Source: Staphylococcus phage LY01. From it: DNA of 64,000 bases. The stretch lies in sequence record OR836606.1, one strand, 5' to 3'. A program made the translations under genes and the position numbers. Below the pieces are notes generated by a model that ran no database searches, was not told the DNA's origin, and worked only from the letters and a program-made list of their open reading frames with translations. Shown here one piece after another: positions 9,031 through 34,236 of the stretch (its first letter is position 1; each line of letters opens with the position of its first letter).

Positions 9031-9699
9031 ATGGGGGAATTGTCAATGAAACATTTTTATAAGAAAAGAGAATCTATTGAATTAGATTTAAAAGCTATGT
9101 ATACAAATCATGTAGATGTAATTTCTCGTTACGATTTTGGTGATGAGGAGTTACATCAAATGGTAGATAGATTCATACCTCAAATAGTTGAAGAAATTCA
9201 TGAATTCAATTATGAAATAAATCAAATTACTAATAATCCTGAATGCAATCAATCTCGAAAGTTTGAATATATTAATAATGCATCAAAAGAATTATTAGAT
9301 ATTGTCCTTTACTTAATATCTATCAATTCAACATTATTAAGTAAGTATATGGACAATAAATTTCTTCAAAAAGATATTATCAATTATAATGAGACTCTCC
9401 TTTTAGCTAACGATAAAAGTATTAATGATTATAATAGACTTAATGGTATTAAAATGAAATTGAATGAATATTTAGTTGAATATATGGGATTGATTAGACG
9501 TTCATTACCTAATAGAAAATATCATCAAGATAAAGAAGAAATTAGTCAAGAAGAACAAAATAAAATAGTGAATAATTCATTTTATATCACTCACAAAATG
9601 ATCGTATCTTTATTAGATACATTATTTACTAATTTAGTTTATACTAAAAATCTAGATGATGTATTGAATAAAATACAAGATGTAGTTAAAAATAAATAA
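9031..9699 (+). CDS. Hypothetical protein (likely start ATG 9046, MKHFYKK, after GGGGGA RBS)
   Basis: ORF. Confidence 0.6.
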   Translation: MGELSMKHFYKKRESIELDLKAMYTNHVDVISRYDFGDEELHQMVDRFIPQIVEEIHEFNYEINQITNNPECNQSRKFEYINNASKELLDIVLYLISINSTLLSKYMDNKFLQKDIINYNETLLLANDKSINDYNRLNGIKMKLNEYLVEYMGLIRRSLPNRKYHQDKEEISQEEQNKIVNNSFYITHKMIVSLLDTLFTNLVYTKNLDDVLNKIQDVVKNK

Positions 9700-9707
9700 T
9701 ATTAATT

Positions 9708-9772
9708 CATCCTAACACATTTAGTCCTTAACTGGATTATTTGTGTTAGGATGAATATTTTATTTTTTTTTT
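9708..9772 (+). terminator. Rho-independent terminator
   Basis: Stem catcctaacaca/tgtgttaggatg followed by a T-run tttatttttttttt. Confidence 0.65.
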
Positions 9773-9851
9773 ATCTTTTAATTTAATCTATATGATTCTG
9801 ATAGAAACATATATGTATTAAGAAAATCATGTTAGGGGGGAATTATGAAAC

Positions 9852-12800
9852 TTGGCTAAAAATAATAAAAATAAAAAGAATATTAGACAATTAGAAAATA
9901 ACAATAAATCAACTGTTATTAAAAATTCTTCTAAAAATACCGGCCGTATTCTTTTTAATGCGTTTATAAAATCTAACCCGTCATTAGATGCTATAGTGGG
10001 AGATTCAGGTTTAAAATTATTTAACAATGATGAAAGAAGATTAAAAAATTTTTCTGAAGTTAAAGGTTCTACTAATGATCTAATAAAAACTTTAAAAAAT
10101 AAATCTAATGAAAACGATCTTTTTTCAAGTAGTAATGAAAAATTATCTAATGAAAAACCTGAATATGAATCAGTAACAGAATATATTGATAATCCTGATG
10201 GAACTAAATCTGAAATTGTTAGTCTGTCAGATAAAAAGAAATCTAAAATAACAAATTCACCTCTAATAGCGATGAATAATTTGGCTGAGATAAATCAAAG
10301 AGGATTTGTTGGAACGAATATTGCAATGAACAATTATTCTCTATCAATACAAGCAACTAATAGCCTTATATATTCAGCCTTATCAAATTTAAGTACAATA
10401 CAAAATGGTATATATCAAAATACTCTAATGGAAGAAAATACTAAAAGAGATAAACAATCTAAATTACAATCCATAATAAATGGAAATATTAGTTTATTAA
10501 AATATTTAGATGAGAAAACTAATCCTGAAAATTTATTAATGGGTATGATGACCGGAGAACAACTTAAATCAATGTTAATGGGAGTAGCTAAAAACCCTAT
10601 TGAATTTGCTGCAACTCAAGGAGCTAAAATTGCATTTAATAAACTTCTATATGGTGATATTGGCGGGTATGATCCTGAAGGTAGTAATAAAAACATATTT
10701 AACAGATTGAATAAAAGATTTGATCCTCAAAATATAGGATCTATGCTTATTAATAGAAATCTTGTTGAAGATAATAAACTTACTAAAGGTTTAGAAAGAT
10801 TAACCGGTAATGATAATAAGTATATATCTAATTTAGGAAATGCTCTTTCAGATAGACTAAATCAATTAAAAGAAGAAGTATTGGGTGACGGTAAGGGCAG
10901 TATTTCTCTAAAAAATAAACGTAAAAAAGATACTCCGGTTCAATTTGATATGGAATCTCATACGTCTATTAATAAAGTTATACCGGACTTCTTATCTAGA
11001 ATTCAAGGTAATTTGATAGCTAAAAAAGAAGGTCGTTCAGGCGGATTAGCAGATAATGCTGAATTAGGTAGTATTTATAATTATCGAAAAGGTATTTGGG
11101 AAAATCGAAGATCTGCTAAGAAAAATGCATTAGATGAAATTAAATCAGAATCTTTATTCAATTTTAAAGATACTTATTTAGGTAAAGAATTATTATCTAA
11201 ATTAGATAATGATGAAGAAAGAACTAAAGAAGTTTTAACTGAATTAACTAAAATAGACAAACCTATTAAAGAAATTTCTAAACTTAAAGAGATAATTAAT
11301 CAAAAAAATATAAATGTTAGCACTGAATCATTATCGGAAGTGTTTGAAAAGAATTCAGCTAAATTCAATACTGATTTATTCAATATTAAGAAATCTATTT
11401 CAAATACTCTTGATAAAAAAGATAATTCAAGAATAATGTCATTTACTGAAATAGAAGGTTTAAATAAATCTAATTCAACATATTCTAGATCTAACAATGA
11501 TGATGATATTAATCAGATTAAAGATTTTGGCAATATTAACTGGGAAAATAGTGATTTAGAAGAAATTAAAAATATTTTCTTAGAAATAGAAAGAAAATTA
11601 AATAATGACTTCAGTAGCGGTAATATTAATAATAATAAAGAATTTATTAATAATAAAGTCGATACAATCAATAATATTATAGACAAAGGCAAAATTTTCT
11701 CTGTTTTAAGTGGGAATAATGAATCTCATGCTTCTGTAATGGATAAGTTAAATAGTCTTTCTAATGCAGTTAATAAAGCTAAAGAATATAAAGAAAATCC
11801 TACAAGTGCTATTAAAGATATAGCCTCTTCCTTAACTAACAGTGTCAGTCTTCCTCAAGAAAACAACCAATTAATGCGAAATAATGAATATCAATATCAA
11901 AATGTAAATCATCAATCTAGCATTATAGATAATAATCCAGTAATGGATTTAATGAATAATATTCCCGTCTTAAATAGTTTAACGATTAATAACAATGAAG
12001 CTAATAAAGATGCTTACATTAAAGAACCAAGTAAAACTATAGATGATTTAACCAAAGAAGAAAAAGAAAAGAAAGCTAAAAGCACGATAATTGATTTAGT
12101 TAACACTGCTTTTGGTAATGACCCAACTATTAAAAAAGATATGGAAGATTCCCAAGATACTGGAGCTTTAGAAAGAATGAAACAAGGTCTTTCAACTGCT
12201 GATGCTGGAAAACTTGGAGAAAATGTTATGTCTACAATGACTGGGTCTAGTAAGAAAGAAATTGCTGAATCTATTAGAGGTAATATAAACTTTGGAAAAG
12301 GCGGAGAAGCTGAGAAATCTATTGGCACTAAAAAGATGATGAACGGAATGCTTGATTTTAGTAAAATGGGACCAGTTTTATTTGCTGGAACTTCTGCAGC
12401 TGTATTAGGTTCATTAATGAAAGGTAGAAATAGTAAGAAAGATTTAGAAGTCAGTGAAAAAGGATTTTTATCATCTGCTGGAGGATTTTTAGGTAACGCC
12501 GCTATGCTAGGTGCTGGAGGATTCTTGGCTGCTAAATTTGGTCCTAAACTATTATCTAAATTATTACCGGGTGGAGTAGGTAAATTCTTCACTAGTATGC
12601 CTGGTATGTTAGGTAAAATAGGCGGCGGAATTAAAAATATAGCTGGGAAATTTGGATTAGGAAAATTATTTAGAGGTATTAAAGGTGCTCCTAAAAAAAT
12701 AGGTAACGTATTTAAAGGTATTGGAAAATTTGCTAAAGATAAACTACCTACTGTTAAGTCTTTAGGTAAAATGGTTATAGGTAAAGGTGCAGGATTGGTT

Positions 12801-15797
12801 AAAAAGGGATTAAGTACCGGTAAAACTATAGGTAAAGTAGCTAAAAGTGGTATATCTAAGATATTTAATAAAAAGAATGCTTCAGCTGCTACTAAAGGAT
12901 TAAGCAAATTTGCTTCTAAAGGTTTTAACAGAGCTAAATCTATCGGTAAAGGTTTATTTGGTGGTTCTAAGAAACTTGGAGGGAAAGCTTTTGGTGCTAT
13001 AGGTAAAGCTAAAAATAAATTATTTGGTAAAGGTGCAGCGAAAGCTGGAGGAAAATTTGCATTAAAGGCAGGATTGAAAACAGCATTACCATTCATACCA
13101 TTTGTTGGACCAGTGATTGGTGCAGCGATGTGGGCTCCTGATATCATTAAGACTATTAAACACCCTATAGAATCATTAAAACATCCAATTAAAACATTGG
13201 GCAGCTTTTTCGGAATTGGAGAACATCCAGGTGATAAAATAGAAGATGAAGCTAAAAGTAAAGAAGAAAAACATACTGAAGATGAAACAGGTTTAGGACG
13301 ACTAATATTAAGCACGACTAAGCTAATGTTTAGAGCTTCCCCTATGTTCCCACTAGCTAAAGTTGGAGGGAATATGTTTAAAACAGTTACTGATAATAAA
13401 ATGCAATCCGGTCCAAAAGCTGAAGAAAATATTCAAAAAGATATATTCATGAGCACTCCTTTAGGTAGTTTATATCAAATTGCTAAAGGCGGAATCGATT
13501 TCTCTAAATATGGTAAAGGTGAAATTGGAGATTGGTTCAGTCGTTTCTTAGTTAAAATGGAAGAAATGGTTGTTGCAATGTCTAAAATGAGAAATTCTAG
13601 TGGTTCTGGAAGTTCAAGTGGTAGTAGCTCAGGTGGAGATCAGCTTAAAGGAGATGAAATAGAAATAGATAAAAATGCTCCTTCTATTACTTCACAAGGT
13701 ATTTTAAATAAAATACCTGATGACGCTGCCGGCGCTTGGTTGAAGAAACATGAGTTCTGGCAACCATTTGGTAATTATCAAGGATTAGCATTTAATGGAA
13801 GCTCAAAACACTGGGGTATAGATATTGGTATGCCTACAGGAACTGATGTATTGGCAATTGTACCGGGTACTGTTTCTAATGTCTTCGTTGATCATGGCGG
13901 AGGTAATATAATAGAGATTAAAAATGGCGGAATATACACTTGGTATATGCATAATAGTAAAATAATTGCCAAAAAAGGTGACAAAGTCCAAGTAGGTCAA
14001 AAAATCTCAGTTTCAGGTAATACAGGAGCTCAAACAACCGCACCTCACCTTCACTTCCAAGTCATGAAAGGTAGACCTTCAAATGAAACTGCTATAGATC
14101 CAGCACCATATGTTTTCGCAAAAGTTAAAGGAAAAGGCGGAGACAAAGATGATGATAAAAAATCTGATAGTAGTGCTAAAAAAAGTAAGAAGAAAAAAGG
14201 TGATGATGGCGGTGGACACTCTGTTATCGGTGATTTAAATTCACATTCCATTCAGAGGGATATTAAAAGAAAAAGAGCTCAAGATATTAAAAATAGAAAA
14301 ATCCAAGATCGCGTTATTAGACGAGAAGAACAAAGCTTAGCTAAGGCTGAAAGAGAAGACGCATTAAATGTTAAAAAAGTAGCCAAAAAAGTTAATAATA
14401 TATTCAAGAAATTAAAAGATTTAAAAGGAACTAAAGGTACACTTAAATCTTCAAATCAATTTAATAAAGTATTAATTGTTGGTGATGATACAATTAATGA
14501 TGCATCCGTAGATCTTAAAAAGAAAATTAAAGGTGCTAAAGTCGAATCTTCTAATGGTAAAGCATATAGTTTTGGACCATCATCAGGTAGAAAAATACTT
14601 CAAGAAAATGTTTCTGAATATAATAAGAAAGGTATAGCTATTGTTATACAGCTAGGTATGAATGGTGGATTATCGACAGGAGAAGTTACAGAAATACAAC
14701 ATATGTATGATAAAGCACATGTATACTTTGTGACTAATGCAATTAGTAAAAAATTAGAGAATGATACAGAACTATCTAATGCAATAGATGATCTGAATGA
14801 TTCATTAAAGATGTCTGCTGAAAATATAATCGAATGGGATAAAAAAGCATCTGAATCATTGTTTAATGAAGACGGAATCACTCTTAATAATAGAGGTAGA
14901 ATGATCTTTGTTGATCTTATTAAATTGTATATAAACCCATATATTGGCGGAGGCGGTAGCTCTGATGAAGAAAAAATAGATAAGGATATAGATAAAGAAG
15001 AATCTAAAGCTGAGAAGAAAAAATCTAAAGAAAAAGATGAAGAGGAAAATAATGAAGAAACTTCAGATGATGAAGATAAAGGCTCTTCTGCCGAAGGATC
15101 TTCTGAGTATAGTTTTAAAAATGGTACTTGGTACGGATCTATAACTGGAAGAGATGATAGAAGAATGGATGAAGAAGAACAAGAGGAATTAAATGATCGT
15201 TTAATGAAACGATACGCTAAAATTTATGGCATTGATTACGAAGAAGCTAAAAGAATTGATCAAGAACAACAAGAAAAGAAAAAATCTGAAGCAGGAAACA
15301 AAAAGTCTGAATCAAGTGCATCAAGTTCTAATAGCGATAGTTCTTCTGAAAATTCATCAAATAATTCTAGTTCCTCAGCATCAACTTCTAAACCAAATAG
15401 CAATGTAAATATCGGAAACCCTCCTATATTCCAATTACCTACATTAGCTAACAGCGGATTTTCCAATATTAATAGAGGTAATAATACTTTTAATAATCAA
15501 GGTAGTAAAAATACTCAAACAATTAATAATAATTATCAAACCGGACAAAGTGGTATTATTAATAATGAAAAAGTAAATAAAGAATTTATAAAAGGTAAGA
15601 ATAGAGTAACTAACCATTATAATAAAATTGTAAATAATCATAAAAATTCTAAAATTGAAAATGGCAATTCTGGTTATACTTATGATTATGAAAAATTATG
15701 GTATTCAGATGATTTAGTAAGAATGTTAGCTAATATTGATAGAAACACATTAGAGTCTACTAAAGAATTAGATCGTTTATTAGAAGAATTGAAATAG
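9852..15797 (+). CDS. Giant virion-associated cell-wall hydrolase / tape-measure-like protein (1981 aa): Gly/Lys-rich amphipathic repeat region, M23 peptidase domain, GDSL/SGNH-like domain
   Basis: TTG start after RBS GGGGGG. M23 motifs HWGIDIG...HLHFQV (~13800-14060). LIVGDDTIN GDSL-like motif (~14440-14760). GK-rich repeats 12300-13150. Confidence 0.8.
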   Translation: MAKNNKNKKNIRQLENNNKSTVIKNSSKNTGRILFNAFIKSNPSLDAIVGDSGLKLFNNDERRLKNFSEVKGSTNDLIKTLKNKSNENDLFSSSNEKLSNEKPEYESVTEYIDNPDGTKSEIVSLSDKKKSKITNSPLIAMNNLAEINQRGFVGTNIAMNNYSLSIQATNSLIYSALSNLSTIQNGIYQNTLMEENTKRDKQSKLQSIINGNISLLKYLDEKTNPENLLMGMMTGEQLKSMLMGVAKNPIEFAATQGAKIAFNKLLYGDIGGYDPEGSNKNIFNRLNKRFDPQNIGSMLINRNLVEDNKLTKGLERLTGNDNKYISNLGNALSDRLNQLKEEVLGDGKGSISLKNKRKKDTPVQFDMESHTSINKVIPDFLSRIQGNLIAKKEGRSGGLADNAELGSIYNYRKGIWENRRSAKKNALDEIKSESLFNFKDTYLGKELLSKLDNDEERTKEVLTELTKIDKPIKEISKLKEIINQKNINVSTESLSEVFEKNSAKFNTDLFNIKKSISNTLDKKDNSRIMSFTEIEGLNKSNSTYSRSNNDDDINQIKDFGNINWENSDLEEIKNIFLEIERKLNNDFSSGNINNNKEFINNKVDTINNIIDKGKIFSVLSGNNESHASVMDKLNSLSNAVNKAKEYKENPTSAIKDIASSLTNSVSLPQENNQLMRNNEYQYQNVNHQSSIIDNNPVMDLMNNIPVLNSLTINNNEANKDAYIKEPSKTIDDLTKEEKEKKAKSTIIDLVNTAFGNDPTIKKDMEDSQDTGALERMKQGLSTADAGKLGENVMSTMTGSSKKEIAESIRGNINFGKGGEAEKSIGTKKMMNGMLDFSKMGPVLFAGTSAAVLGSLMKGRNSKKDLEVSEKGFLSSAGGFLGNAAMLGAGGFLAAKFGPKLLSKLLPGGVGKFFTSMPGMLGKIGGGIKNIAGKFGLGKLFRGIKGAPKKIGNVFKGIGKFAKDKLPTVKSLGKMVIGKGAGLVKKGLSTGKTIGKVAKSGISKIFNKKNASAATKGLSKFASKGFNRAKSIGKGLFGGSKKLGGKAFGAIGKAKNKLFGKGAAKAGGKFALKAGLKTALPFIPFVGPVIGAAMWAPDIIKTIKHPIESLKHPIKTLGSFFGIGEHPGDKIEDEAKSKEEKHTEDETGLGRLILSTTKLMFRASPMFPLAKVGGNMFKTVTDNKMQSGPKAEENIQKDIFMSTPLGSLYQIAKGGIDFSKYGKGEIGDWFSRFLVKMEEMVVAMSKMRNSSGSGSSSGSSSGGDQLKGDEIEIDKNAPSITSQGILNKIPDDAAGAWLKKHEFWQPFGNYQGLAFNGSSKHWGIDIGMPTGTDVLAIVPGTVSNVFVDHGGGNIIEIKNGGIYTWYMHNSKIIAKKGDKVQVGQKISVSGNTGAQTTAPHLHFQVMKGRPSNETAIDPAPYVFAKVKGKGGDKDDDKKSDSSAKKSKKKKGDDGGGHSVIGDLNSHSIQRDIKRKRAQDIKNRKIQDRVIRREEQSLAKAEREDALNVKKVAKKVNNIFKKLKDLKGTKGTLKSSNQFNKVLIVGDDTINDASVDLKKKIKGAKVESSNGKAYSFGPSSGRKILQENVSEYNKKGIAIVIQLGMNGGLSTGEVTEIQHMYDKAHVYFVTNAISKKLENDTELSNAIDDLNDSLKMSAENIIEWDKKASESLFNEDGITLNNRGRMIFVDLIKLYINPYIGGGGSSDEEKIDKDIDKEESKAEKKKSKEKDEEENNEETSDDEDKGSSAEGSSEYSFKNGTWYGSITGRDDRRMDEEEQEELNDRLMKRYAKIYGIDYEEAKRIDQEQQEKKKSEAGNKKSESSASSSNSDSSSENSSNNSSSSASTSKPNSNVNIGNPPIFQLPTLANSGFSNINRGNNTFNNQGSKNTQTINNNYQTGQSGIINNEKVNKEFIKGKNRVTNHYNKIVNNHKNSKIENGNSGYTYDYEKLWYSDDLVRMLANIDRNTLESTKELDRLLEELK

Positions 15798-15820
15798 ATA
15801 ACAGGAGGTGGAACTAATAA

Positions 15821-18800
15821 TTGGCTAGAAATAAAAAATTTAACACTAGTAAGATAGAGAAGGAGTTTAGAAATAACTCCTCCTCTAAATCTTCTAGAAA
15901 ATATATAGATACTGAATTTAATAAAAATTTAAATAATATAAATTCTAACGATATGAAACGTATGATGGATCAAAACAATCCATTAAAAGCAGTTAAAGAA
16001 TTAAAGAATAAAAAGAAAAAGCAACTACAAAAGATAAGTGAATCAACTAGAGATTTATCTAAAGAAGCTTTAGAATCTACTAAAAATACCTTTAAAACTG
16101 GAGAAACAATTCAAGATAAAGGATCATTAAAAAACTTCAATAGTATGGGTATGGATTTCAGTGGAGATTTTGAAGATTTTAGTTTTGATGATAGTTTTTC
16201 AGATATAGATTCCGACATAGATAATTCTTTAGATGATGGAGATTTCAAATTTGATGACTTTGATAAGGAAGATGATAATAAATCTAAAATAGTGTCTTCC
16301 ACAACAATTATCAATAATGACGGTTCTTCTGCTAAATCTACAGCACTATTAACTTCTTCTGTTTCTAATCTTTCTCAAATAAACACTACTGGATTTACTT
16401 CTATGATTAATAACCTTAATTTAATGAGGGAAGCTAATGATAATATTAGAGAAAGTATGTTCCAGAACTTAAACGGATTAATTCAAACTAGTAATGCTAT
16501 TAGACAAAATACTAAAATTAAAAATATATCCGAAATAAAGAATAGTAATTCATTAGAAGACTTATTTTTATCAAATATAACTTTATCAAATATATTAGAA
16601 GGATCTCAAGAAGAAGGATTTAAAGATAAAGCTAAAGACTTCATCAAAAAACAAGGAACAGAATTACTTAAAGAAGTTATTGGTTCTAAAAAACAAGGAA
16701 TTAAAAGTTCAGGTTTAGTTGATTTAGCTAAAGGTAAAGCTTTTGATTTCCTTAATAATGAAGATACTTTTATAGAGAAAGCGGTTGGCAAATTTGCTAA
16801 TAAAAAACTTAGTCCTTTTAGAGATAATGATAATGGTACTAAACAAAGGAAAAGAGATAAAAGAAGAGATGATTTACTTGAAGACGTTAAATTAGGTAAA
16901 AGCAAGTTAATTGATAAAATATTTGATAATGTAACTGGCGGTATATCAACTGCTAATAAAAAAGATAGAAATCAAAAAGTTGCTTTTGATGTGGAAACTC
17001 ATAATACAATTAATACAGTTATCCCTGGCTATTTATCTAAAATAGTTGGTTTAACTTCAGAAGATGGTCAAGAAATCCACTATGATTATGATTCAGGTTC
17101 TTTTAAAACTTCCAAATCTATTAAAAATGATATAGAAAAAAGAGTTAATAAAACTATCAAAGAATCTAGTTTTACTAAAGAATTTGAAAATATGGCTTCT
17201 GAAATGGGTATTGATCTGTTTAATAATGAAAGTAATAAAAATAAAGCCACATCTAAAATTAAAGAAATTATTTCTAGAAATATTAACAAAAGTGATGAAC
17301 TTGATCAAATTAAATCTAATGACCCAAATGACCCATTTAATATTCTTCTAGATAAAATATTTAATGATAAAGAAGCTAAAACTAGTTTAACTAAAACTAG
17401 AATGCAATTAAATAAAGAATCTAAAGATATTAAGAGAAAATTATCGGGTAGTTCTATAAATGCTCTTAATGACAAGAGTAAAAGAAAAGGTACTTCTAAA
17501 AATATTACATCCAAATTAAGTAATGGAAATAAAAGTGGTATTCTTAGTACTAACAAAGATACTTTATACGATAATATTAACTTTAATATCGTTAATAGAG
17601 ATATAAGTGAGATCAAAAAGATTGTTTCTAGAATAAATAATAAAATACCTGAGAAAAGATATAATAATTCTAACGATAGTAAGTCAAGTGACTTTATTAA
17701 TAATACAAATCAATCTAATGATAATATTTCCAGAGAAATAGATCCTAGAGAGCAAACTTTAAACCAAAATACTTCTTCTAGATCAAATCAGAATAGAGAA
17801 TATGATAATACTAAAAATGGAGATAATGGATCTACTATTATTCCTAATGAACAAATTTTAGAAGATGGACAAACAAAATCGTCTGAAAGTTCAGATAATA
17901 AAGATTTTATAGATAGAATAGAAGAAGCTCAAGATCTTATCGATAGCAATAAATATGTTAAAGAGAAATTTGACAAATATAAAAATAAAGGTAAAAACTT
18001 TGCTAAAGAAAAAATAGGTAAATTGTCCAATACTAAATTAGGTAGTAAAATAACTAGTATGGGCGGTGCTTTAACTGGTAAATTTGCTGCTGGCGGTGCT
18101 TTAATGGCAGGTGCAGGTAGTAGACTTAAAGGAAAACTTAAGGCTAGAGCTACTAGAATGGCTGCTGGAAAAGGTACTAAAAAAGCTATAGGTAAAGGAT
18201 TACTTAAAGCAGGTTCTAAAGTAGGTGCTCGTGTTGGGTTAAATGCTATTCCCGTAGTTGGACAAATTGCATCATTAGCATTAGCCGGTCCAGATATTAT
18301 TAGAACAATAGCCAATCCAATAGAATCGTTAAAACATCCAATTAAAACATTAGGTAGTATTATTGGTTTCAATGACCACCCTTCTAAAACTAAAAAAGAA
18401 CAAGAAAAGTTAGATTCAACTCAACCTGGCGGAGAAAATTTTGCAATTGATCCTTTAGTTGATACTAAAATGAATGGATCTATAGATAAATCTTCAATTA
18501 TTGGAGATTTTATTAAAGATAATCCATTATTAGCTTCCACTCCTTTATTAGGATTAGCAGGAATGGGTTTATATAAATCAATTGTAAAACCGGCATTCGG
18601 TTTAGGTATGAATATGGTTCAAAAAACTACCGGTATGGCTAAGAGTTTTGGAGATCAAACTGATATGGCTATGGAAGAGAAAACAAGTGGCTTTGGCGGT
18701 TTGATTAAAAAAGTTGTCGGCGGTGCTTCTATGTTAATGATGGCACCTTTGGCATTGGCTGGTAAAGGTTTAAGTAATTTAACTGGTATGACTTCAACGC

Positions 18801-21523
18801 TTCTTCAAGGAGGAACTGGTCTAATTAAATCTGGTTGGAATTGGTTAAACGAAAAATTCTCTAGTTATGAAGAAGAAATGGGAAATATGAGTAAAGAAAT
18901 GACTGAAGCTAGTAAAGAAGAATTAAGTTCATATCAAGAAGGAATTGAAAGTGAAGCATCTGATAGAGCTAAAAAAGAGATAGCGGAAATGCAAGGTATG
19001 TCAGATAAAGCTAATAAAGATGCTGAAAAACAAGTAAAAGAATCCGCAGAAAAAACCAGAGACGATATTAAAAAAGATGTAGATGAAACTATGAAGAATT
19101 CACCATTATCAATAATGGGTAGAATTGGTCATCAAATGAATAAATTGATGCCTAAAAATCTTATGAGTAAACTTAAGAAAACTCCTAAAAAATTAGCTGA
19201 AACTATGATGCGTATGTCTCCTTTTTATACTTTATTAAGTAAGAAGAAAAAGAAAAAATCTAAATTAGATATAAATGAGCCAGGCGGAGAAGTAGTTAAT
19301 ACTATTGGAGACTGGTTTGATAAGCTCGGCGGTATGATGAATGATATCATGGCTGGTTTTATGGCCGGCTCTGGATCAAGTTCAGCGGAAGCCTCTGAAA
19401 TCTCAGATGGCGATGCAGCTTCAGTAGGCGGAGAAGGCGCTGAGAAAATATGGAATTTCCTAACTGGTAAGGGACTATCAGAAGAACAAGTTGCAGGTAT
19501 ATTAGGTAACTTTGAACATGAATCTGGAAATAGACCAGATAGAGTTCAAGGAGATGTAGCATTTGACGAAGCAAAAGCAAATAGTTCTATATCAGGTTAT
19601 GGTATAGGTATTGCTCAATGGGATAATGTCCGTAGACAAGGTTTAATGAAGTATGCTAAAAAACAAGGTAAAAAATGGAGTGACTTGGATTTACAATTAG
19701 ATTATTTATGGTATGAATTACAAGGTCCCGAAAGTGCTGCGTTTTCACATCTTAAATCTACTAAAACAGTAGAACAAGCTGCTGCTTCATGGGTGAGTAA
19801 ATATGAAAGAGCGGGTGTACCTGCATTAGGAAACCGTGTATCCTCAGGAAATGCTTTTCTTAAAAAATTTAGTGGTTCTTCTAAAAAATCAACTAAGAAA
19901 AAAGGCGGCGGTGGAGGAGGCTCTAATACAATAGATACTGCTTACTTAAAACAATTTTCTAATATGAGTTCTTCCACTAAAAATATTAATGTAAGAAAAG
20001 TTGCTTATAAAAATAAAGGACTAATTAAAGGAAATCCTCCTATTCAAAAAGGCGGCGGTGGAGGAGGCAGTAGTGGCAACGTTCAAGCTAAAATTAAGAA
20101 AGCTGTAGAATGGGCCAAGAAACAAGTTGGAGCTTCTTACTCACAACCTAACCGTGATGGTGCTAATTCATTTGACTGTTCAAGTTTAGTCTATCGTTCT
20201 TATAGAAAAGCAGGATTAACTGATGTTCCACAAGGTGCTACTACACATACTTTTTGGGATGGAGGTACTCCTTTCGAAAAAATAAACCCTAAAAAAGATG
20301 GATTAAAAGTTGGAGATATTATTTTATGCGCTAATGTGGAACACGTAACAATCTATATCGGTAATGGAAAACAAGTAGAGTCAAATGGAGTTGAAGGCGT
20401 TGTTATCAACAGTGCGAATAAATATAAAAATCAATTTGGTATAGATGGATACATGCGTTATAAAGGCGGCGGACCAAGTGATGGAGGATCTGATAGTGAA
20501 GAGTCTGGAGGAGATTCTCCAGGCGCTTCAGAATACAGCTTTAAAAATGGCACTTGGTACGGATCAATTACTGGTCGTGATGATAACCGTATGGATGAAG
20601 AAGAACAAGAAGCTTTAAATGACCGTTTAATGAAACGTTATGCTCAGATATATGGAATTGATTATGAAGAAGCTAAGAAAATTGACCAAGAACAACAAGA
20701 AAAACTTAAATCTGAAGCTGGCAAGAAAAAATCTGAGTCAGGATCTTCATCTGGTTCGGAAGGATCAACGGGTTCATCTAGTTCAAGTGGATCTGATGGA
20801 AGAGATGGGTCAAATGGACAAGATGGATCATCTTCATCAACTTCAGGTCAATCTCAACAACAAGGTTCAGGAAATTCTTCTGGAGGAAGTACTGTAATTA
20901 ACAATGGAGGAAATACTAATTCTACTATAGTTAATAATAATTATACTTCACCAGGTGCCGCTACTAGTAATTCAACTACCCAACAAATAATTCAAGGGAA
21001 TAATAATACTGTAAGAAATATTTATAATATCACTAATAATTATAATAATTCCACGGTATCTTACAAAAATGGTCCTATGAAAGTTGATAATCAAAAACGC
21101 ATGGATTTAGATGAAATTACTAAGCATACAAGCAATATTGATAAGAATACGGCTAAAATGTTAGAACAGCTTAAGAAAATGTCATTTAAAGGTAATAACT
21201 CTATTATTAATAATAAAGGTAATAATATCTTTAATAACACTACTATCAATGATAAAGGTGACTTAGTTGACCCTAAAGGTAATGTAATTATCAAAGAAAT
21301 TAATAAAGAAATTGATAAAATCATTAAGGACAATTTACAAAATAACCCAGATATTATTAATAATGGTAATATTAATCCTAATGATTCATATAATCCTGGT
21401 ACTGGTGGAAATAACGGTCCTTCACAAGGAGATCCAGATCTTCAAGAAGCTATTAATAGATCTTATGGAGATCAATTTAATATTGACGTGAGATCTGCTA
21501 TACCAGTATTTTCAGGTAAATAA
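15821..21523 (+). CDS. Giant virion-associated peptidoglycan hydrolase (1900 aa): Gly-rich amphipathic region, tail-lysozyme-like domain, CHAP/NlpC-P60 domain; paralog of the upstream gene
   Basis: TTG start after RBS AGGAGGTG. Lysozyme-like segment EKIWNFLTGKGLSEEQVAGILGNFEHESG (~19440-19870). NlpC/P60 with Cys in FDCSSLVYRSY and His in EHVTIYIG (~20080-20410). Confidence 0.85.
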   Translation: MARNKKFNTSKIEKEFRNNSSSKSSRKYIDTEFNKNLNNINSNDMKRMMDQNNPLKAVKELKNKKKKQLQKISESTRDLSKEALESTKNTFKTGETIQDKGSLKNFNSMGMDFSGDFEDFSFDDSFSDIDSDIDNSLDDGDFKFDDFDKEDDNKSKIVSSTTIINNDGSSAKSTALLTSSVSNLSQINTTGFTSMINNLNLMREANDNIRESMFQNLNGLIQTSNAIRQNTKIKNISEIKNSNSLEDLFLSNITLSNILEGSQEEGFKDKAKDFIKKQGTELLKEVIGSKKQGIKSSGLVDLAKGKAFDFLNNEDTFIEKAVGKFANKKLSPFRDNDNGTKQRKRDKRRDDLLEDVKLGKSKLIDKIFDNVTGGISTANKKDRNQKVAFDVETHNTINTVIPGYLSKIVGLTSEDGQEIHYDYDSGSFKTSKSIKNDIEKRVNKTIKESSFTKEFENMASEMGIDLFNNESNKNKATSKIKEIISRNINKSDELDQIKSNDPNDPFNILLDKIFNDKEAKTSLTKTRMQLNKESKDIKRKLSGSSINALNDKSKRKGTSKNITSKLSNGNKSGILSTNKDTLYDNINFNIVNRDISEIKKIVSRINNKIPEKRYNNSNDSKSSDFINNTNQSNDNISREIDPREQTLNQNTSSRSNQNREYDNTKNGDNGSTIIPNEQILEDGQTKSSESSDNKDFIDRIEEAQDLIDSNKYVKEKFDKYKNKGKNFAKEKIGKLSNTKLGSKITSMGGALTGKFAAGGALMAGAGSRLKGKLKARATRMAAGKGTKKAIGKGLLKAGSKVGARVGLNAIPVVGQIASLALAGPDIIRTIANPIESLKHPIKTLGSIIGFNDHPSKTKKEQEKLDSTQPGGENFAIDPLVDTKMNGSIDKSSIIGDFIKDNPLLASTPLLGLAGMGLYKSIVKPAFGLGMNMVQKTTGMAKSFGDQTDMAMEEKTSGFGGLIKKVVGGASMLMMAPLALAGKGLSNLTGMTSTLLQGGTGLIKSGWNWLNEKFSSYEEEMGNMSKEMTEASKEELSSYQEGIESEASDRAKKEIAEMQGMSDKANKDAEKQVKESAEKTRDDIKKDVDETMKNSPLSIMGRIGHQMNKLMPKNLMSKLKKTPKKLAETMMRMSPFYTLLSKKKKKKSKLDINEPGGEVVNTIGDWFDKLGGMMNDIMAGFMAGSGSSSAEASEISDGDAASVGGEGAEKIWNFLTGKGLSEEQVAGILGNFEHESGNRPDRVQGDVAFDEAKANSSISGYGIGIAQWDNVRRQGLMKYAKKQGKKWSDLDLQLDYLWYELQGPESAAFSHLKSTKTVEQAAASWVSKYERAGVPALGNRVSSGNAFLKKFSGSSKKSTKKKGGGGGGSNTIDTAYLKQFSNMSSSTKNINVRKVAYKNKGLIKGNPPIQKGGGGGGSSGNVQAKIKKAVEWAKKQVGASYSQPNRDGANSFDCSSLVYRSYRKAGLTDVPQGATTHTFWDGGTPFEKINPKKDGLKVGDIILCANVEHVTIYIGNGKQVESNGVEGVVINSANKYKNQFGIDGYMRYKGGGPSDGGSDSEESGGDSPGASEYSFKNGTWYGSITGRDDNRMDEEEQEALNDRLMKRYAQIYGIDYEEAKKIDQEQQEKLKSEAGKKKSESGSSSGSEGSTGSSSSSGSDGRDGSNGQDGSSSSTSGQSQQQGSGNSSGGSTVINNGGNTNSTIVNNNYTSPGAATSNSTTQQIIQGNNNTVRNIYNITNNYNNSTVSYKNGPMKVDNQKRMDLDEITKHTSNIDKNTAKMLEQLKKMSFKGNNSIINNKGNNIFNNTTINDKGDLVDPKGNVIIKEINKEIDKIIKDNLQNNPDIINNGNINPNDSYNPGTGGNNGPSQGDPDLQEAINRSYGDQFNIDVRSAIPVFSGK

Positions 21524-21566: not shown

Positions 21567-21607
21567 TAAAAATTATGCGGATATGACAATTTATTATATG
21601 TCATATC
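21567..21607 (+). terminator. Hairpin terminator after the giant hydrolase gene
   Basis: Perfect 14-bp inverted repeat ATGCGGATATGACA...TGTCATATCCGCAT. Confidence 0.5.
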
Positions 21608-23142
21608 CGCATATATTATTTCAGAAATTAAAAAAGGATGTGAAATCTAAATTGCCTAATGAAAAAGATATAAAAGAACAAATTGAAAAAGCTGAGAAAA
21701 AAGCCAAAGAAAAAGAAATGGAAAAGCTTAATATTAGAGATGAAGATATAGCATTAATACCTCAGCCTGATGAAGGTAAAGGAGATTACGATTTCCATGA
21801 ATATGATCCTAGTCAAAATGATTTAGGTGTATTTAAAGACGCTACAGGTAATACTCGTGACATTTCTGAGTATGGAGCTTCTGATAAAACTAAATTGAGA
21901 AATGTTAAAGGGGAGTTAGATGTATTTGGAATGCCTATGTACTATTCTAGCTTAGATGATCCTAATAGAAGAATATATAAAAGAACATTTGAGTTAGATT
22001 TGCCTTTAGTATTTATAATGCCAGGTATGCCTAAATTAAATGGTAAACTATTTGGTAAACCGGGTGAAGGAAAATTATGGAGTTTTGGAGAAGGTTTAGA
22101 CAGATTAGCAAATACTACTGCTGGTTTAGTCGGTATAGGTAATACTAAAGATGGGCGTATGGTTAGTTTTGAACCTAAAATGAGTGAGTACTATAAATAC
22201 GTGCAAACTATGGGAAGTCAATTACATGCTTCTATGGGTTTAAAAGGTTCATTTGATTTGGGTGGCTCTCTAGATGATAAAAACTATGGATTAGCTTATT
22301 ATGCTGATAAAGCTACTAGTGTATCTGAATCTGGAATGCATGAATATAATCAATCTGATATAGCTTCTCAAATTAATAATAAAAACCAAGAAATTCGTGA
22401 AGAAAAAGAAATGGCTCGTATTGGAGGAGCTTCTATTTTAGGTAAAATTACAAGATCTATTAAAGATAGTATCAATGATATGGTTGCAAGTATGCCAGTA
22501 TTGGGTGGTATAGTTGGTAACTTTATGGAAAACCTAGATGGTGCGTCTATGTATTATCCTGATATTTGGATGAATTCAACTTTTGACCGTACTTATAATT
22601 TAGAATTTAAATTCTATAGTGCGTATGGAGATCCTCAATCTATTTTTGAAAATGTATACTTGCCATTTATGTCATTATTAGTATTAGCTTTACCTTTACA
22701 AGATTCTATTTTCTCATATAAACAACCATTCATTGTTAGAGCAAATTGTCCTGGTAGATTTGAATGCCATACAGGTATTATAACATCAATGAATATAGTT
22801 CGTGGAGAAGAAGGTACATGGACAGCAGATGGTTTCCCTAGAGAAATAACAGTTTCACTAAATGTAAGAGATATGTACCCTAACTTAATGGCATCAAAAT
22901 CATTCCAACGTATGAAATTTAATACAGGTTTAATTTCTTATATTGATTGTTTAGCAGGTATTAGAAGAGATCAACTATCAATTATAGATAAAGCTCAAAT
23001 TAATATGCAAAATCAATATTCAAGAAGTATGCAAGTGTTAAAAGGAAGAGTATTTAAACAGCAAATAGATGATACAATTTATGGTTATAAATCTCAAACA
23101 AACCCTCATCCTAACAGTGCTATTGGAAGTACATTATCATAA
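21583..23142 (+). CDS. Hypothetical structural protein (true start probably downstream of the hairpin, ~21640-21720)
   Basis: Long ORF; the annotated start overlaps the terminator hairpin. Confidence 0.5.
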   Translation: MTIYYMSYPHILFQKLKKDVKSKLPNEKDIKEQIEKAEKKAKEKEMEKLNIRDEDIALIPQPDEGKGDYDFHEYDPSQNDLGVFKDATGNTRDISEYGASDKTKLRNVKGELDVFGMPMYYSSLDDPNRRIYKRTFELDLPLVFIMPGMPKLNGKLFGKPGEGKLWSFGEGLDRLANTTAGLVGIGNTKDGRMVSFEPKMSEYYKYVQTMGSQLHASMGLKGSFDLGGSLDDKNYGLAYYADKATSVSESGMHEYNQSDIASQINNKNQEIREEKEMARIGGASILGKITRSIKDSINDMVASMPVLGGIVGNFMENLDGASMYYPDIWMNSTFDRTYNLEFKFYSAYGDPQSIFENVYLPFMSLLVLALPLQDSIFSYKQPFIVRANCPGRFECHTGIITSMNIVRGEEGTWTADGFPREITVSLNVRDMYPNLMASKSFQRMKFNTGLISYIDCLAGIRRDQLSIIDKAQINMQNQYSRSMQVLKGRVFKQQIDDTIYGYKSQTNPHPNSAIGSTLS

Positions 23143-26360: not shown

Positions 26361-29300
26361 TTATTTTTCAACATTAATGTCAATGAAGATACGTTCAATA
26401 ACATTATTGAATTTAACAGAAATTTTAATACGTACAATACGTTGAGATTTATCATATTCATCTGCGCTAACTTCAGCTTGAATAGTTTCACAGCTACGGT
26501 TAGATACATAACGAGTAAGATAAGCATTCAACTCTGTACTCATAATTGAACGAGTTTCATCATCATTTAATTCAAATTGGTAATCAGAAACAAGAGTTTC
26601 TGCATCACGTTTAATTTGGTTTAATGTAAAGATATTATTCAAGTTAGATAATGGACCATCAGATTTAATAGAAGTCATCTGTGCACCAAATTTAGTTTTA
26701 TCAATATCTTTTTCAATGTAGTTGATTTTAGAAGTATAAAGTTTTTCTTTATAAGGTTCATTAGGAGCCCAAGATAAAGCTTTATGGCCTTCAACTAAAC
26801 CACGTCTAGGACCCGCAATTGGGAAATGTAAACCAGAGTTAACAGCTTGATAAGGAATCATTGAAGCTAAACGATAAGTTGGAGTGAAACGAATGTCTCT
26901 ACCAGTGTACTCATCATAATAAGTTAAATCTTGAGAGTAAATAGCTGTATACTCAGAAGAAACAGCAAATTCTTCTTTTCTCCATCTAATTGCATCTTCA
27001 GGACTAACTGGATAACGATCAGTAACTGTGTCGGCTAAGAATACAAAGTCTTTACGAACATTTTTAGCTAATTCAGAGATAGCGAACTTAACTTCATTAG
27101 AATAACGAGCATCAAGTACAACATCAAATGGATAAGCTTTAGTGTTTGTAATTTCTTCGTCTACTAAACCTTTATAAGCTTTAATTAATTCACGATTAAC
27201 TGCATTTTTACGATCCTTATATGAAATATCTTCAGCATATGAGAAGTCGCCATCAGAACCGAATAAGAATTTAACTGGACTAGAAATATCAATAAGGTTT
27301 GTATTGAAGTATTTAGAGTTAGCCTTATTCAAGTTAGCAACTGCTAATTCAATATTTTGATGAGCGTTTAATGTAATATCTCTTTCTGTATAGTTAGAAC
27401 GAGTTTGAATCATTTCGTCAATATTTTTACGGAAGATAGAAATATCATAATAGATTGTATTAACCGCAATACGGACTGCACGAGCAACTTTGTATACAGA
27501 AGCCACTGATACAGCTCTATTAATTAAATCTACTAATTGATTAGCAATTTCATTACAAGTTACGAATACTTCTTCACGGTTAACAGCGTTATCTTCCATT
27601 AATCCTAATGTAATATCGTCAACTAACATTTGTTTGTCAGCCAATGAATTTAACATGGATTCTGGAGAAACTAAGTCACGTTCTGAATCTTCATCGTCAC
27701 CATCAGGAGTAGTGTTAATAAAATTAATTGCTTCTTCAGGGAGTCCTTCACGTACTGCTGGCATTAAGTTATCTATTACATAACGTAATTCTGTTTCAGT
27801 ATCATTTAATACTTTAGCCATTCCTTCTAAGTTAGTTACAGATTTCATACCAATACGTAATTCAGCGATATCATTTGTAATATCTAAGATATTAGATTTA
27901 TGTTGAATACCGAAGATACGGATTTGGTCTTTCTGAGCTAATACATCACGTAATTCTTTAACATCAGCTTGATATTTAGGATTTGAAGAAATACCTGAAT
28001 TAGATTTATAAACTAATTCGTAAGCAGCATTAAGTTTATTACCATTATCTAAGAATTCATTTAATAATAAAGAACCAATTTCTTCTGTTCCAGAAAGAAC
28101 TGCAGAAAGGTTTTCTTCATTTGAATCTTCAAAATAAGTGTTATAATCTTGAACTAAACGTTCAGCTGCTCCAGCAGGTTTACCACCGAAATTAATTTCA
28201 GAAGGTTTGAATTTTCCAGCTAATTCTTCTTCAACTGCTTCTGCATCATTAATATCTGCAGATACATCTTCTTGATTTAATTTTTCAGAAACTAAATTAT
28301 CTTTAATAATTTTAGGTAAGTTACCTGTATCATCATCAAATAAACCATTAGATGGCACAATAATTTTATTCAATAATGATTTAAATTCTGTAAAATTATC
28401 AGAACGTAAAGTTTTGTATTGATCTCTCATATAAGAAAGACGGTCTGAATCTGTAACGAAAGTTTTTTCACGCATACCATTATCTAATGAAATTAATGCG
28501 TTTTCAACTGGATCATTAAAATCAGGTTTATTCAATACGTGTTTACCACTAATAGTTACTGGTAGACCTTTGTTATTATAACGGTGTAAAGCAATATGAA
28601 CATCTTCCGTTTGTTTAGTTTCTTCTGAATAGAAAGTTTCAGGAGTTCCATCAATACTAATTTTAGATTTACCAGAAATAACATCAATACTTGCAGGATG
28701 TACATTAGGGTTAATTTCTTTAGCTAGATTTTGGAAGTTTTCTAGATTAAATTTGATGTTAATGTATTTAGAATAACGATTAACAACTTCTTCAATAAAC
28801 ATTGATTCACCGGTATCTGAAATCGAATCTGGATCAAATGTAACTAAGAATGGACCATCAATTACGTTAACGTTACCAAAATCATCAAATTCAAGAACTT
28901 CTAAGTTGTAAACACGTTCAGTACGACCACTAGTGTCATAAGAAGTATTTAGAGTTAAACGAATACCTAAATCATTATAAGATTCACCACGACCATTAGG
29001 ATAAGCTAAAAGTAAGAAGTTATTGTTATAACCATCTACTGTTTGCTCATTACCACGGTCTAAAGTAATTTCATTAACTAATTCTTCAATATTTCTATTA
29101 TTTTTCTTAACAAATGCAATTGTTGGACGAATTTTGACATCGTCAATTTTAACCAATTCATTTGATTCTGTTAAAACTTTTTTACCATCTTTTTGTACTC
29201 TACTTTGTACGTTTAATATAGCATGTGAATAAGTTGCATTTTGCGGTAGAATACGTAATACATAAGCTTGACCACCAGAACGTAACCAGTTCACGATGTT

Positions 29301-33327: not shown

Positions 33328-33489
33328 CATTTATATTAACTATATGAATTTCATATAGATTAGACTATATCTTATACTTCTAATAAGTATTATTATATTT
33401 AATCGTTGGACAATCATAAAGATTGATGCTGATTAAGTTTATAAACTTTTCCAGCAATTAATAATATTTATACTGAGCCATTAAAATTA
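33328..33489 (-). ncRNA. Miniature group I intron (~162 nt) in nrdE
   Basis: On the minus strand: P AATTGCTGGAAAAG, Q AATCAGCATC, R GTCCAACGATTAAA, S AAGATATAGTCTA. The IGS GGCTCAG pairs with the exon end CTGGGT. The intron starts UAA and ends G. Confidence 0.8.
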
Positions 33490-34236
33490 ACCCAGTTGAT
33501 TTACATATGATAATGTATCTTCAAATACTTTCATAACCGGAACTACTCCTGAAGCGGCACCTTCTACACCTTTAATTGGATCATTATCTGCACGTAGATT
33601 TGATAAACTGATTCCACAGCCTCCGCCTCTTTTACTTAATTGAGCTACGTTAGTAACAGTTCTATAAATTGAAGCTAGAGAATCTTCCATTGTAACTAAG
33701 AAACAACTTATTAACTCACCAGAACGTTTTCTACCTGAATTGAGAAATGTCGGTGTAGCGGGTTGGAAAGTTCCTGTAATGATTTCTTTAGCGATATTCT
33801 TAGCTAATTCTTCATCTCCATCAGCTAAATATAAAGCTACAAATAAAATTCTATCTTCATATAGTTCTAATAAAATCTCCCCAGCATCATCTTTCATTGC
33901 ATACTGTTCATAGAATTTTTTAGCCCCCAATAAGCGAGTAAATCTATGCTTATAAGCCATTAATTCTTTCATTAATCCTTTAATGAACTCAAAATCATAA
34001 TTATTGATCATATCGCCATCAATATAATCATTATCAACTAGATAATTAATTTTTTCTTTATATGTTTTAAAGTATCTTACATTCTTATTAACTGAATCTA
34101 AGAAATATTTTTTAACTGAAGCTAATTCAAATTCTAAATCTAAATTACCGTCTTTTAATTGTGACCCTCTTGAGTTTAATTCGTTATATGAATAATCTTT
34201 AAATTTTTCTGAAGTTAAATCAATTTCTTTTGGCAT
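33490..34236 (-). CDS. nrdE: Ribonucleotide reductase class Ib alpha subunit, exon 1
   Basis: N-terminal ATP-cone-less NrdE region; the ORF continues into the intron and stops at the intron's first codon, TAA. Confidence 0.85.

Follow-up and report, generated by a model that had tools for sequence, protein, structure and literature searches.

A putative tandem duplication of a phiKZ-related tape-measure-type gene in Staphylococcus phage LY01

Two kinds of described systems come closest to the locus reported here. One is the single giant tape-measure or virion peptidoglycan-hydrolase gene of phiKZ-related jumbo phages, represented by phiKZ gp181, a virion peptidoglycan hydrolase that has been assigned to the tail or baseplate (PMC5380687), and by the tape-measure protein (TMP) gp239 of SPN3US, which is missing from tailless particles (PMC5105663). 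The other is the gene pair of the staphylococcal jumbo phage MarsHill, gp087 annotated 'tape measure protein' and gp086 annotated 'tail lysin'. The literature on MarsHill-type phages mentions 'two potential tape measure proteins', one of which carries PF18013 and PF00877 and is called a tail lysin, and it reports helical content and transmembrane domains for both MarsHill proteins (10.1101/2020.12.14.422802); a further source (PMC10638138) describes, for a relative, a tail lysozyme next to a TMP that contains a peptidase_M23 domain. At a greater distance, T5 Pb2 is a ruler protein that also has muralytic and membrane-active functions (Boulanger 2008, as cited in PMC5380687). The siphophage T5 has one TMP and one muralytic activity, and its likeness to the locus studied here is functional. 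We analysed a 64,000-nucleotide (nt) stretch of the Staphylococcus phage LY01 genome (OR836606.1; the window), in which two adjacent genes, here called g1 and g2, encode proteins of almost 2000 amino acids (aa) that the LY01 record labels 'hypothetical'.

We consider it probable, at roughly 0.65, that g1 and g2 arose by tandem duplication of the one giant tape-measure or virion peptidoglycan-hydrolase gene known as AR9 gp204 and found at the phiKZ gp181 position. The original prediction, made from the letters of the window, had described the two products as ejected tape-measure or wall-degrading proteins, and their nature as tape-measure-like, wall-degrading tail proteins was supported by synteny, architecture and ortholog annotation. 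For close relatives the literature already contains the core of the finding, and nothing here overturns current understanding. Modestly new are the clade-specific duplication, an OatA-type SGNH domain that occurs as an apparently active and as a dead allele, and a cassette exchange; term searches of the retrieved passages on relatives did not find paralogy, an OatA-type SGNH domain, shared modules or cassette exchange. The main value lies in annotation, as two LY01 'hypothetical proteins' become tape-measure-type tail lysins.

Paralogy and genomic position of g1 and g2

LY01, with a genome of 258,897 bp, is an AR9/PBS1-like Staphylococcus jumbo phage. The window (~25% G+C) encodes a tail sheath, a baseplate wedge, several virion proteins of the phiKZ/AR9 family, a Dda/RecD-like helicase and a ribonucleotide reductase. 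The 11.7-kb region holding g1 and g2 showed 88% nucleotide identity to MarsHill and matched eight further staphylococcal jumbo phages. The gene pair occurs in all nine staphylococcal jumbo phages found (MarsHill, Madawaska, Machias, S6, PALS2, DC4, SA1, PB50 and AH12), and each of the five relatives inspected had a tandem pair equivalent to g1-g2. MarsHill shares with LY01 the tandem arrangement, the gene order, the TTG starts and the upstream terminator. In MarsHill, Madawaska, Machias, SA1 and DC4 the g1 ortholog carries the annotation 'tape measure protein'.

The two open reading frames (ORFs) had been predicted at exactly the coordinates given in Table 1, with a TTGGCTA(A/G)AAAT start context that is present at both, and their predicted paralogy was borne out by three collinear BLASTP segments. 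The N-terminal segment (aa 140-609 of g1 versus 180-636 of g2) showed 25% identity (E 6e-10), the central block (aa 1049-1149 versus 781-870) 47% identity (E 2e-20) and the C-terminal segment (aa 1741-1981 versus 1560-1785) 45% identity (E 3e-38). The central block contains the predicted PDII(K/R)TI..PIESLKHPIKTLGS sequence, which is present in both genes. The enzyme domains lying between the three segments are unrelated in g1 and g2: the payload of g1 consists of an M23 peptidase and an SGNH domain and that of g2 of a lysozyme and an NlpC/P60 peptidase, in agreement with the different payloads foreseen.

Directly downstream of g2 lies the gene for a 519-aa virion protein of the phiKZ gp182/AR9 gp205 family. 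This family gave tblastn matches in 191 phage records and was used as a synteny anchor. The g1-g2 pair stands directly 5′ of the anchor gene, as the known or annotated TMPs of relatives do. A single gene directly 5′ of the ortholog of the 519-aa protein was found in AR9 (gp204, 1925 aa, annotated tail tape measure) and in BpSp (gp263, 1797 aa). The same position is taken by g083 of phiR1-37 (2553 aa, 'putative tape measure tail fibre protein') and, in PhiPA3, by gp213 (2319 aa), which precedes gp214, annotated as similar to phiKZ gp182, and therefore occupies the phiKZ gp181 position. In Listeria phage LPJP1 fragmented ORFs lie directly 5′ of the anchor. Because every inspected non-staphylococcal relative has one such gene, duplication of the tape-measure gene is a feature of the staphylococcal jumbo clade alone, and the gene is single in every other lineage inspected. 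The LPJP1 tape-measure-type gene (locus positions 9798-14384) is annotated as ORFs of 565, 269 and 594 aa, and may be a frameshifted or mis-called single gene.

Table 1. Coordinates of g1, g2 and associated features in the 64,000-nt LY01 window
Feature	Position	Strand	Remarks
Baseplate wedge gene	2265-4493		within window
Intrinsic terminator hairpin followed by U-run	9705-9756	+	RNA fold -31.8 kcal/mol, z = -9.6 versus shuffles
AACA-N6-TA, match to AR9 late-promoter consensus	9806-9817	+	35 nt 5′ of g1 start; weak evidence
g1, tape-measure-type protein	9852-15797	+	LY01 WRM43543.1; 1981 aa; TTG start
g1 N-terminal family motif (VQFD..H.SINKVIP.FLSRI ... Y.Y..G.W)	10896-11126	+	common to g2, AR9 gp204 and LPJP1
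g1 Gly/Lys-rich cationic tract	12249-13076	+	composition, hydropathy
g1 most hydrophobic segment (FIPFVGPVIGAAMWAP) and shared block PDIIKTIKHPIESLKHPIKTLGS	13077-13205	+	repeat family D3, 76% nucleotide identity
g1 exchanged cassette (M23, linker, SGNH, module)	13600-15400	+	Machias-like, flanks MarsHill/S6-like; edges approximate
g1 Peptidase_M23, lysostaphin/LytM type	13731-14144	+	Pfam 81 bits (cut-off 28.7), 7e-23
g1 SGNH-fold domain, OatA C-terminal type	14463-14951	+	predicted non-catalytic
g1 module (SEYSFKNGTWYGSITGRDD.RMDEEEQE.LNDRLMKRYA.IYGIDYEEAK.IDQEQQEK)	15102-15299	+	~66 aa
g2, paralog of g1	15821-21523	+	LY01 WRM43544.1; 1900 aa; TTG start
g2 N-terminal family motif (KVAFDVETHNTINTVIPGYLSKI ... 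HYDYDSGSFKTSK)	16937-17215	+	
g2 shorter Gly/Lys-rich tract, hydrophobic segment (VGLNAIPVVGQIASLALAG) and shared block PDIIRTIANPIESLKHPIKTLGS	17918-18358	+	
Two g2-specific Gly-rich hydrophobic segments	18530-18781	+	aa 904-927 and 961-987
g2 Phage_lysozyme2 (PF18013)	19439-19870	+	Pfam 126.6 bits (cut-off 28.2), 1e-36
g2 NlpC/P60 cysteine peptidase (PF00877)	20096-20440	+	Pfam 37.6 bits (cut-off 23), 2e-9
g2 module copy	20528-20725	+	~66 aa
519-aa virion protein, phiKZ gp182/AR9 gp205 family	21583-23142	+	PHROG phrog_20401, 2e-88
Tail sheath gene	26361-29513		within window

The likeness of g1 and g2 to AR9 gp204 and PhiPA3 gp213 extends beyond position and size (1925-2319 aa) to the layout, which comprises a helical N-terminal part, Gly-rich hydrophobic segments and a C-terminal muralytic domain; the differences are that LY01 has two genes where these phages have one, and that similarity is near the detection limit outside one motif. 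This motif lies at aa ~360-460, and AR9 gp204 has it at the matching relative position. The g1 motif matched AR9 gp204 with a BLASTP E of 2e-5 and LPJP1 with a tblastn E of 7e-6, and the g2 motif matched AR9 gp204 with 39% identity (BLASTP E 5e-8) and LPJP1 with a tblastn E of 1.7e-12. When the module, the central block and the N-terminal region were used as tblastn queries, matches were restricted to the nine staphylococcal jumbo phages and one Lactobacillus phage tail lysin (E = 0.3). In Pfam searches at E <= 10 the SGNH domain, the module, the N-terminal regions and the tails at the C-terminus gave nothing beyond noise below threshold. The payload varies with the host lineage, with a VgrG3-like C-terminal muramidase in AR9, a VgrG3-like domain plus NlpC/P60 in LPJP1, and a domain like the phiKZ gp144 endolysin noted in the PhiPA3 gp213 annotation.

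Gly/Lys-rich amphipathic repeat tracts had been claimed for both proteins, and this claim stood in part. The composition was found in both: aa 800-1100 of g1 contain 17-24% glycine and 13-21% lysine, with a net charge of ~+20 per 100 aa over aa 901-1100, and aa 701-800 of g2 contain 16% glycine and 22% lysine. Helical amphipathic periodicity was detected in g1 only (aa 897-1075; mean hydrophobic moment 0.388 versus 0.219 ± 0.029 for shuffled sequences, z = 5.9, peak at 95-100 degrees) and not in the g2 tract (z = 0), and the program TRF found no tandem repeats in the Gly/Lys tracts. Each protein has three moderately hydrophobic Gly-rich segments with hydropathy peaks of 1.2-1.56 (aa 838-856, 876-894 and 1081-1099 in g1; aa 805-823, 904-922 and 961-979 in g2). 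Across six phages the lengths were 1973-2020 aa for g1 and 1900-1963 aa for g2, close to the length of AR9 gp204, and the spacing of landmarks common to g1 and g2 differs by ~300 aa between the paralogs. The conserved total length fits an overall-length constraint.

Hydrolase and SGNH domains

The M23 peptidase foreseen in g1 was found with its catalytic motifs intact. The PF01551 match spans aa 1319-1417, and the best-matching structures in the PDB were phage 2638A M23 (1e-27), LytM (4e-27) and lysostaphin (3e-22). The motifs HxxxD (HWGID), WYMH and PHLHF are all present and align with those of LytM and phage 2638A M23, which suggests a glycyl-glycine endopeptidase acting on pentaglycine bridges. 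The thick or unusual host wall that had been proposed to explain so many hydrolases agrees with a Staphylococcus host and with an M23 of the lysostaphin/LytM type.

In g2 the expected tail-lysozyme-like domain scored strongly against PF18013. It matched the N-terminal domain of phi29 gp13 (3csr) at 1e-6, with GNFEHES of g2 aligned to GNMQSES, and the Glu of this N...ES motif is the residue that we take to be catalytic in Phage_lysozyme2. The second g2 domain had been described as CHAP/NlpC-P60. Its NlpC/P60 part was recovered, and the Pfam families reported for g2 did not include CHAP. The Cys (FDCSS) and His (EHVTIYIGNG) residues of the NlpC/P60 domain align with the motifs of the Clostridioides difficile hub-hydrolase CD1368 (8v3w), which was the best PDB match (9e-8), the next being CwlO. 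Lysozyme followed by NlpC/P60 is presumably also the domain pair, in the same order, of CwlT-type hydrolases of Gram-positive conjugative elements, but the g2 payload sits in a phage tape-measure-type protein and its genomic context is unambiguously that of a jumbo phage. A conjugative-element origin of the window, which the CwlT-like pair had suggested, was rejected in view of the sheath, baseplate and virion proteins and the 88% nucleotide identity to MarsHill.

The g2 domains also bear on a different reading of the pair, in which only g1 is the tape measure and g2 is a tail-tip or baseplate-hub lysin located outside the tube lumen. Orthologs of g2 are annotated 'tail lysin' in MarsHill and 'tail lysozyme' in DC4, the best solved match of the NlpC/P60 domain is a hub hydrolase of a contractile system, and staphylococcal siphophages keep TMP, Tal and Hyd as separate proteins (PMC7048315). 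However, g2 is collinear with g1 along its whole length, and the N-terminal motif is stronger in g2 than in g1 against both AR9 and LPJP1 (E values above). The Gly-rich hydrophobic segments and the conserved length of ~1900-1960 aa are features of g2 as well, its only Pfam or PHROG matches were the lysozyme and NlpC/P60, with no hub-type domain detected, and SA1 annotates both genes as tape measure (g2 as 'tail tape measure protein'). We regard a hub location of g2 as possible but doubtful.

The third domain to be considered is the GDSL-like domain that had been assigned to g1. An SGNH fold of OatA type was found there, while neither g1 nor the excised domain matched a Pfam GDSL model even at E <= 10, and the catalytic Ser and His are missing. 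In a phmmer comparison the domain matched the C-terminal domain of the peptidoglycan O-acetyltransferase OatA of Staphylococcus aureus (SaOatA-C; 6wn9) across its whole length with an E of 6e-9. An AlphaFold2 model built from a 10-sequence alignment had a mean predicted local distance difference test score (pLDDT) of 88 and a predicted template modelling score of 0.85; a single-sequence AlphaFold model with a pLDDT of 35.8 was discarded. The top Foldseek matches of the model were SaOatA-C structures 6vjp and 6wn9 (template modelling scores of 0.67-0.76), followed by other SGNH carbohydrate esterases. The fold, the Gly-Asn of blocks II/III and the Asp of block V are common to SaOatA-C and LY01, and the two proteins differ in that OatA joins the SGNH domain to an AT3 membrane domain, whereas in LY01 it is embedded in a tail protein of ~2000 aa. 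The tail-tip protein Tal of 80alpha/phi11 carries an SGNH domain and provides a precedent on a staphylococcal phage tail tip (PMC7048315), although the Tal domain matches generic GDSL esterases and the LY01 domain is specifically OatA-like.

Block I of the LY01 domain reads VGDDT, with Asp at the position of Ser453, so that the nucleophile is absent, and block V reads DGIT, with Thr at the position of His578, so that the general base is absent and the triad Asp is kept. Block III (LGMNG) retains the oxyanion Asn, and its Gly and Asn were invariant in 13 of 13 aligned sequences. SaOatA variants S453A and H578A had no detectable activity (PMC5697884). Among the 13 aligned homologs both catalytic residues were missing only in LY01, Machias and SA1, which have Asp or Glu at the Ser site and Thr or Met at the His site, whereas MarsHill, S6 and Madawaska keep GDS...H. 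The LY01 SGNH domain is thus predicted to be catalytically dead. Four distinct hydrolase activities had been claimed for the pair, and because of the Ser to Asp and His to Thr changes the fourth is unsupported; three remain credible in LY01 from their motifs, namely a Gly-Gly endopeptidase, a muramidase and a DL-endopeptidase. The ratio of nonsynonymous to synonymous divergence (dN/dS) of the SGNH domain was 0.32 against Machias, resembling that of the N-terminal region, with synonymous divergence (dS) near saturation; the dead domain is still under purifying selection and is not decaying freely. The occurrence of an apparently active and a dead OatA-like allele in otherwise ~90% identical phages offers a natural experiment on the importance of de-O-acetylation for the infection of lysozyme-resistant S. 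aureus.

A word-index homology search with the LY01 and MarsHill SGNH domains returned nothing, likely because the index holds cluster representatives and a 316-aa fragment stands for the g1 cluster. An exhaustive HMMER search with aa 1528-1815 of g1 against 1.84 billion representatives gave nine proteins at E <= 0.001, of which only the Machias TMP also contains the C-terminal module described below. Two others were metagenomic proteins of 1518 and 1662 aa in which an N-terminal SGNH domain (GDS...H intact) is followed by a multi-pass membrane region and then by a long coiled coil, and the remaining matches were ordinary OatA-type or short SGNH proteins. The two nearest non-phage relatives of the domain are therefore giant membrane proteins, and the one locus inspected is a conjugation locus, that is, another envelope-crossing DNA machine, a context that would fit a local wall-modification role for the SGNH domain. 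The 1662-aa protein of that locus (contig ERZ27317071 k141_31635, locus positions 10001-14989) is unannotated and had no Pfam match; it is flanked by a MobL relaxase on one side and a type IV secretion system coupling protein on the other, and an AAA ATPase is also present.

The shared C-terminal module and exchange of the g1 cassette

As predicted, both proteins carry a common C-terminal module and have Ser/Gly/Asn-rich tails. The two copies are identical at 60 of 66 residues, and their nucleotide identity (81% over 229 nt, 82% over 198 nt) is below the ~85% first given. The original prediction also held that the module had recently been homogenised between the two genes, and here it was not upheld. 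The same codon encodes 38 of the 60 identical residues, where 39.0 were expected from the codon usage of g1 and g2, which means that synonymous sites have reached saturation. Residues with one or two codons (E, D, K, Q, N, Y, M and W) are abundant in the module and the genome is AT-biased, and the nucleotide identity of the module is explained by amino-acid conservation. Identity within the genome did not exceed identity between genomes: the g1 module of LY01 was 82% identical to that of its own g2, 82-86% to the g2 modules of other phages and 78-84% to other g1 modules. Moreover, gene-specific residues are kept across phages (R20 and K40 in g1 of LY01 and Machias; QEAL in five g2 copies), the module dN/dS of 0.03-0.05 was the lowest in the protein, and in LPJP1 the NlpC/P60 domain is followed by a diverged counterpart of the module's helical half. 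From this comparison the module is old and under strong purifying selection, and recent homogenisation in LY01 is not supported.

Recent gene conversion within the genome would nevertheless account for the contrast between the 81-82% nucleotide identity of the module and the ~25% amino-acid identity of the N-terminal halves. Relatives do have small patches that would fit occasional conversion: the first 10 codons of the MarsHill module are 100% identical between the genes, and in Machias a patch of 90-93% nucleotide identity reaches 20 codons into the Ser/Gly stretch, with 48 identical codons against 39.3 expected. Against such conversion stand the codon count in LY01, the equal or higher identity of its g1 module to foreign g2 copies, the persistence of R20, K40 and QEAL across phages and the presence of the diverged helical half already in LPJP1, and we consider recent conversion a very unlikely source of the likeness between the two modules. 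In Machias itself, a lineage-specific, low-complexity ELKAKAGKEATESGSSSGSSSS stretch located 56-80 codons past the start of the module is common to g1 and g2 and has 90-93% nucleotide identity and near-identical codons, which suggests local gene conversion in that lineage.

A separate event was detected in the payload of g1. For most of its length LY01 g1 showed 90-96% amino-acid identity to MarsHill/S6, and in sliding comparisons residues ~1250-1800 were nearer to Machias. The M23 domain was 82-86% identical to that of Machias versus 57% to that of MarsHill, and the SGNH domain 54-59% versus 33-38%. In the nucleotide comparison the change falls at ~13600, within a Ser/Gly linker, and the reversal at ~15250-15400, at or just past the module. 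The dS against MarsHill was 1.1-1.6 inside the cassette and 0.24-0.33 outside it. A payload cassette has thus been exchanged by recombination between staphylococcal jumbo lineages, with the g1 cassette of LY01 coming from a Machias-like lineage. The SGNH domain has Asp/Thr in LY01, where MarsHill, S6 and Madawaska keep Ser/His.

Virion evidence, proposed mechanism and neighbouring features

Several observations weigh against reading g1 and g2 as a duplicated tape measure. The PHROG TMP families (4070, 9570 and 19487) matched only the M23 and lysozyme regions, and no separate homology in sequence to a ruler proven by experiment was found, the motif matches to AR9 gp204 and LPJP1 being the only ones outside the enzymes. 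The simple tape-measure rule is 1.5 Å per aa. The tails of MarsHill and S6 measure 233 and 237 nm (10.1101/2020.12.14.422802), and the MarsHill residues then give ~1.17-1.19 Å per aa. The sharing of one lumen by two paralogs is a putative arrangement, and the docking and binding roles proposed below for the module and the dead SGNH domain are conjectural. Finally, published LC-MS of SA1 and DC4 virions did not detect the orthologs: SA1 ORF154 and ORF155 had no mass-spectrometry data among 52 virion proteins, whereas the flanking products ORF151, ORF152, ORF153 and ORF156 were detected, and the DC4 orthologs are absent from the 15-protein virion list; BpSp gp263 is absent from a 23-protein virion list.

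The length discrepancy bears on the idea that g1 and g2 are internal head ejection proteins, similar to T7 gp14-16, that build a muralytic trans-envelope channel. Muralytic domains and membrane-active segments would fit that class too, and simple scaling of protein length to tail length fails. On the other side, the location assigned to phiKZ gp181 is the tail or baseplate, SPN3US gp239, which is only a putative counterpart of g1 and g2, is missing from tailless particles, and the LY01 locus lies among tail genes, with the sheath and baseplate wedge genes nearby (Table 1). We judge a head location improbable.

The proteomic data bear on a further alternative, in which g1 and g2 are left out of the particle and act inside the cell, for example as lysis accessories or as assembly scaffolds that are later removed. 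Such a role would explain why the orthologs went undetected in the SA1, DC4 and BpSp virion proteomes while SA1 neighbours were found; the SA1 virion proteins detected include the orthologs of the 222-aa, 519-aa, 721-aa and 267-aa neighbours. However, the SA1 data set also missed tail fibres, and very Lys-rich proteins yield many short tryptic peptides. Absence from virions had been named at the outset as grounds for refutation; for these reasons we take the non-detection as a caveat that still stands, short of a refutation. A virion location has been reported for phiKZ gp181 and for the SPN3US TMP, and no signal peptide or holin-type export logic was evident in g1 and g2, for which no formal test was made. 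An exclusively intracellular role has, in our estimate, very little probability.

On the preferred reading of g1 and g2 as duplicated tape-measure-type tail proteins, both would be late products that enter the tail lumen as the tail is assembled, and sheath contraction would expel them first. The g1 M23 peptidase would then cut pentaglycine cross-bridges, the g2 lysozyme the glycan strands and the g2 NlpC/P60 domain the stem peptides, while the cationic amphipathic tract in g1, together with the Gly-rich hydrophobic segments present in both proteins, would engage the membrane and open a conduit for DNA. The dead SGNH domain of LY01 most likely persists as a peptidoglycan-binding or spacer module. 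The allele of MarsHill and S6, in which Ser and His are kept, could de-O-acetylate N-acetylmuramic acid (MurNAc) and in this way license the muramidase. The 66-aa module probably docks both paralogs to a common tail or baseplate partner, and may also serve as a homology anchor for swaps of payload cassettes between phages.

A more specific and tentative proposal, which we think has a minor share of the probability, is that the paralogs form a heteromeric tape measure in which the SGNH domain is a host-wall adaptor, either an active esterase (MarsHill/S6) or a dead peptidoglycan reader (LY01, Machias and SA1), and the module is both dock and recombination anchor. If so, one contraction would deliver a matched enzyme set, the MarsHill/S6-type SGNH domain would unmask MurNAc for the g2 muramidase, and the dead form would read (O-acetylated) peptidoglycan. 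The duplication raises the testable question of how two rulers of ~2000 aa share one tail, and the three credible staphylolytic domains are candidate enzybiotic parts.

With respect to expression, an intrinsic terminator upstream of g1, annotated at the equivalent place in MarsHill, ends the upstream unit (ORFs of 296 and 222 aa) and sets g1-g2 apart. Shine-Dalgarno sequences were found for g1 (AGGGGGG, 9834-9840) and for g2 (AGGAGGTGG, 15803-15811), so that g2 has its own ribosome-binding site. Since g2 starts 23 nt after the g1 stop, the two genes probably form one co-transcribed unit. The AACA-N6-TA consensus of AR9 late promoters (PMC5312081) is matched upstream of g1 and not upstream of g2; it has 43 matches on the + strand of the AT-rich window, and a chance match is plausible. 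A sigma-70 promoter scan was uninformative (105 sites observed versus 115 expected), and Rfam and tRNA scans of the window gave no matches. An antisense ORF inside the Gly/Lys tract of g1 (12014-13315, - strand, 433 aa) was rejected as most likely a by-product of Gly/Lys codon composition. The 222-aa ORF directly 5′ of g1 (9031-9699, + strand) had no significant family match, and its SA1 ortholog is the virion protein ORF156. The 296-aa and 222-aa ORFs were also considered as possible TMP chaperones and showed no PHROG match, no significant Pfam match and no similarity to AR9 gp202 or gp200.

Two observations were made elsewhere in the window. The large subunit of ribonucleotide reductase (31873-34236, - strand) is apparently split into ORFs of 248 aa (profile positions 144-351) and 484 aa (352-795) separated by a 156-nt gap (33331-33486), and corresponds to a single 733-aa gene in DC4 and SA1; Rfam found no intron family in the window. 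An ORF of 389 aa (38287-39456, - strand) matched the PHROG 'transposase' family phrog_506 (7e-95) and looks to be of the IS605/TnpB type, and in Machias a similar transposase interrupts a virion-protein gene.

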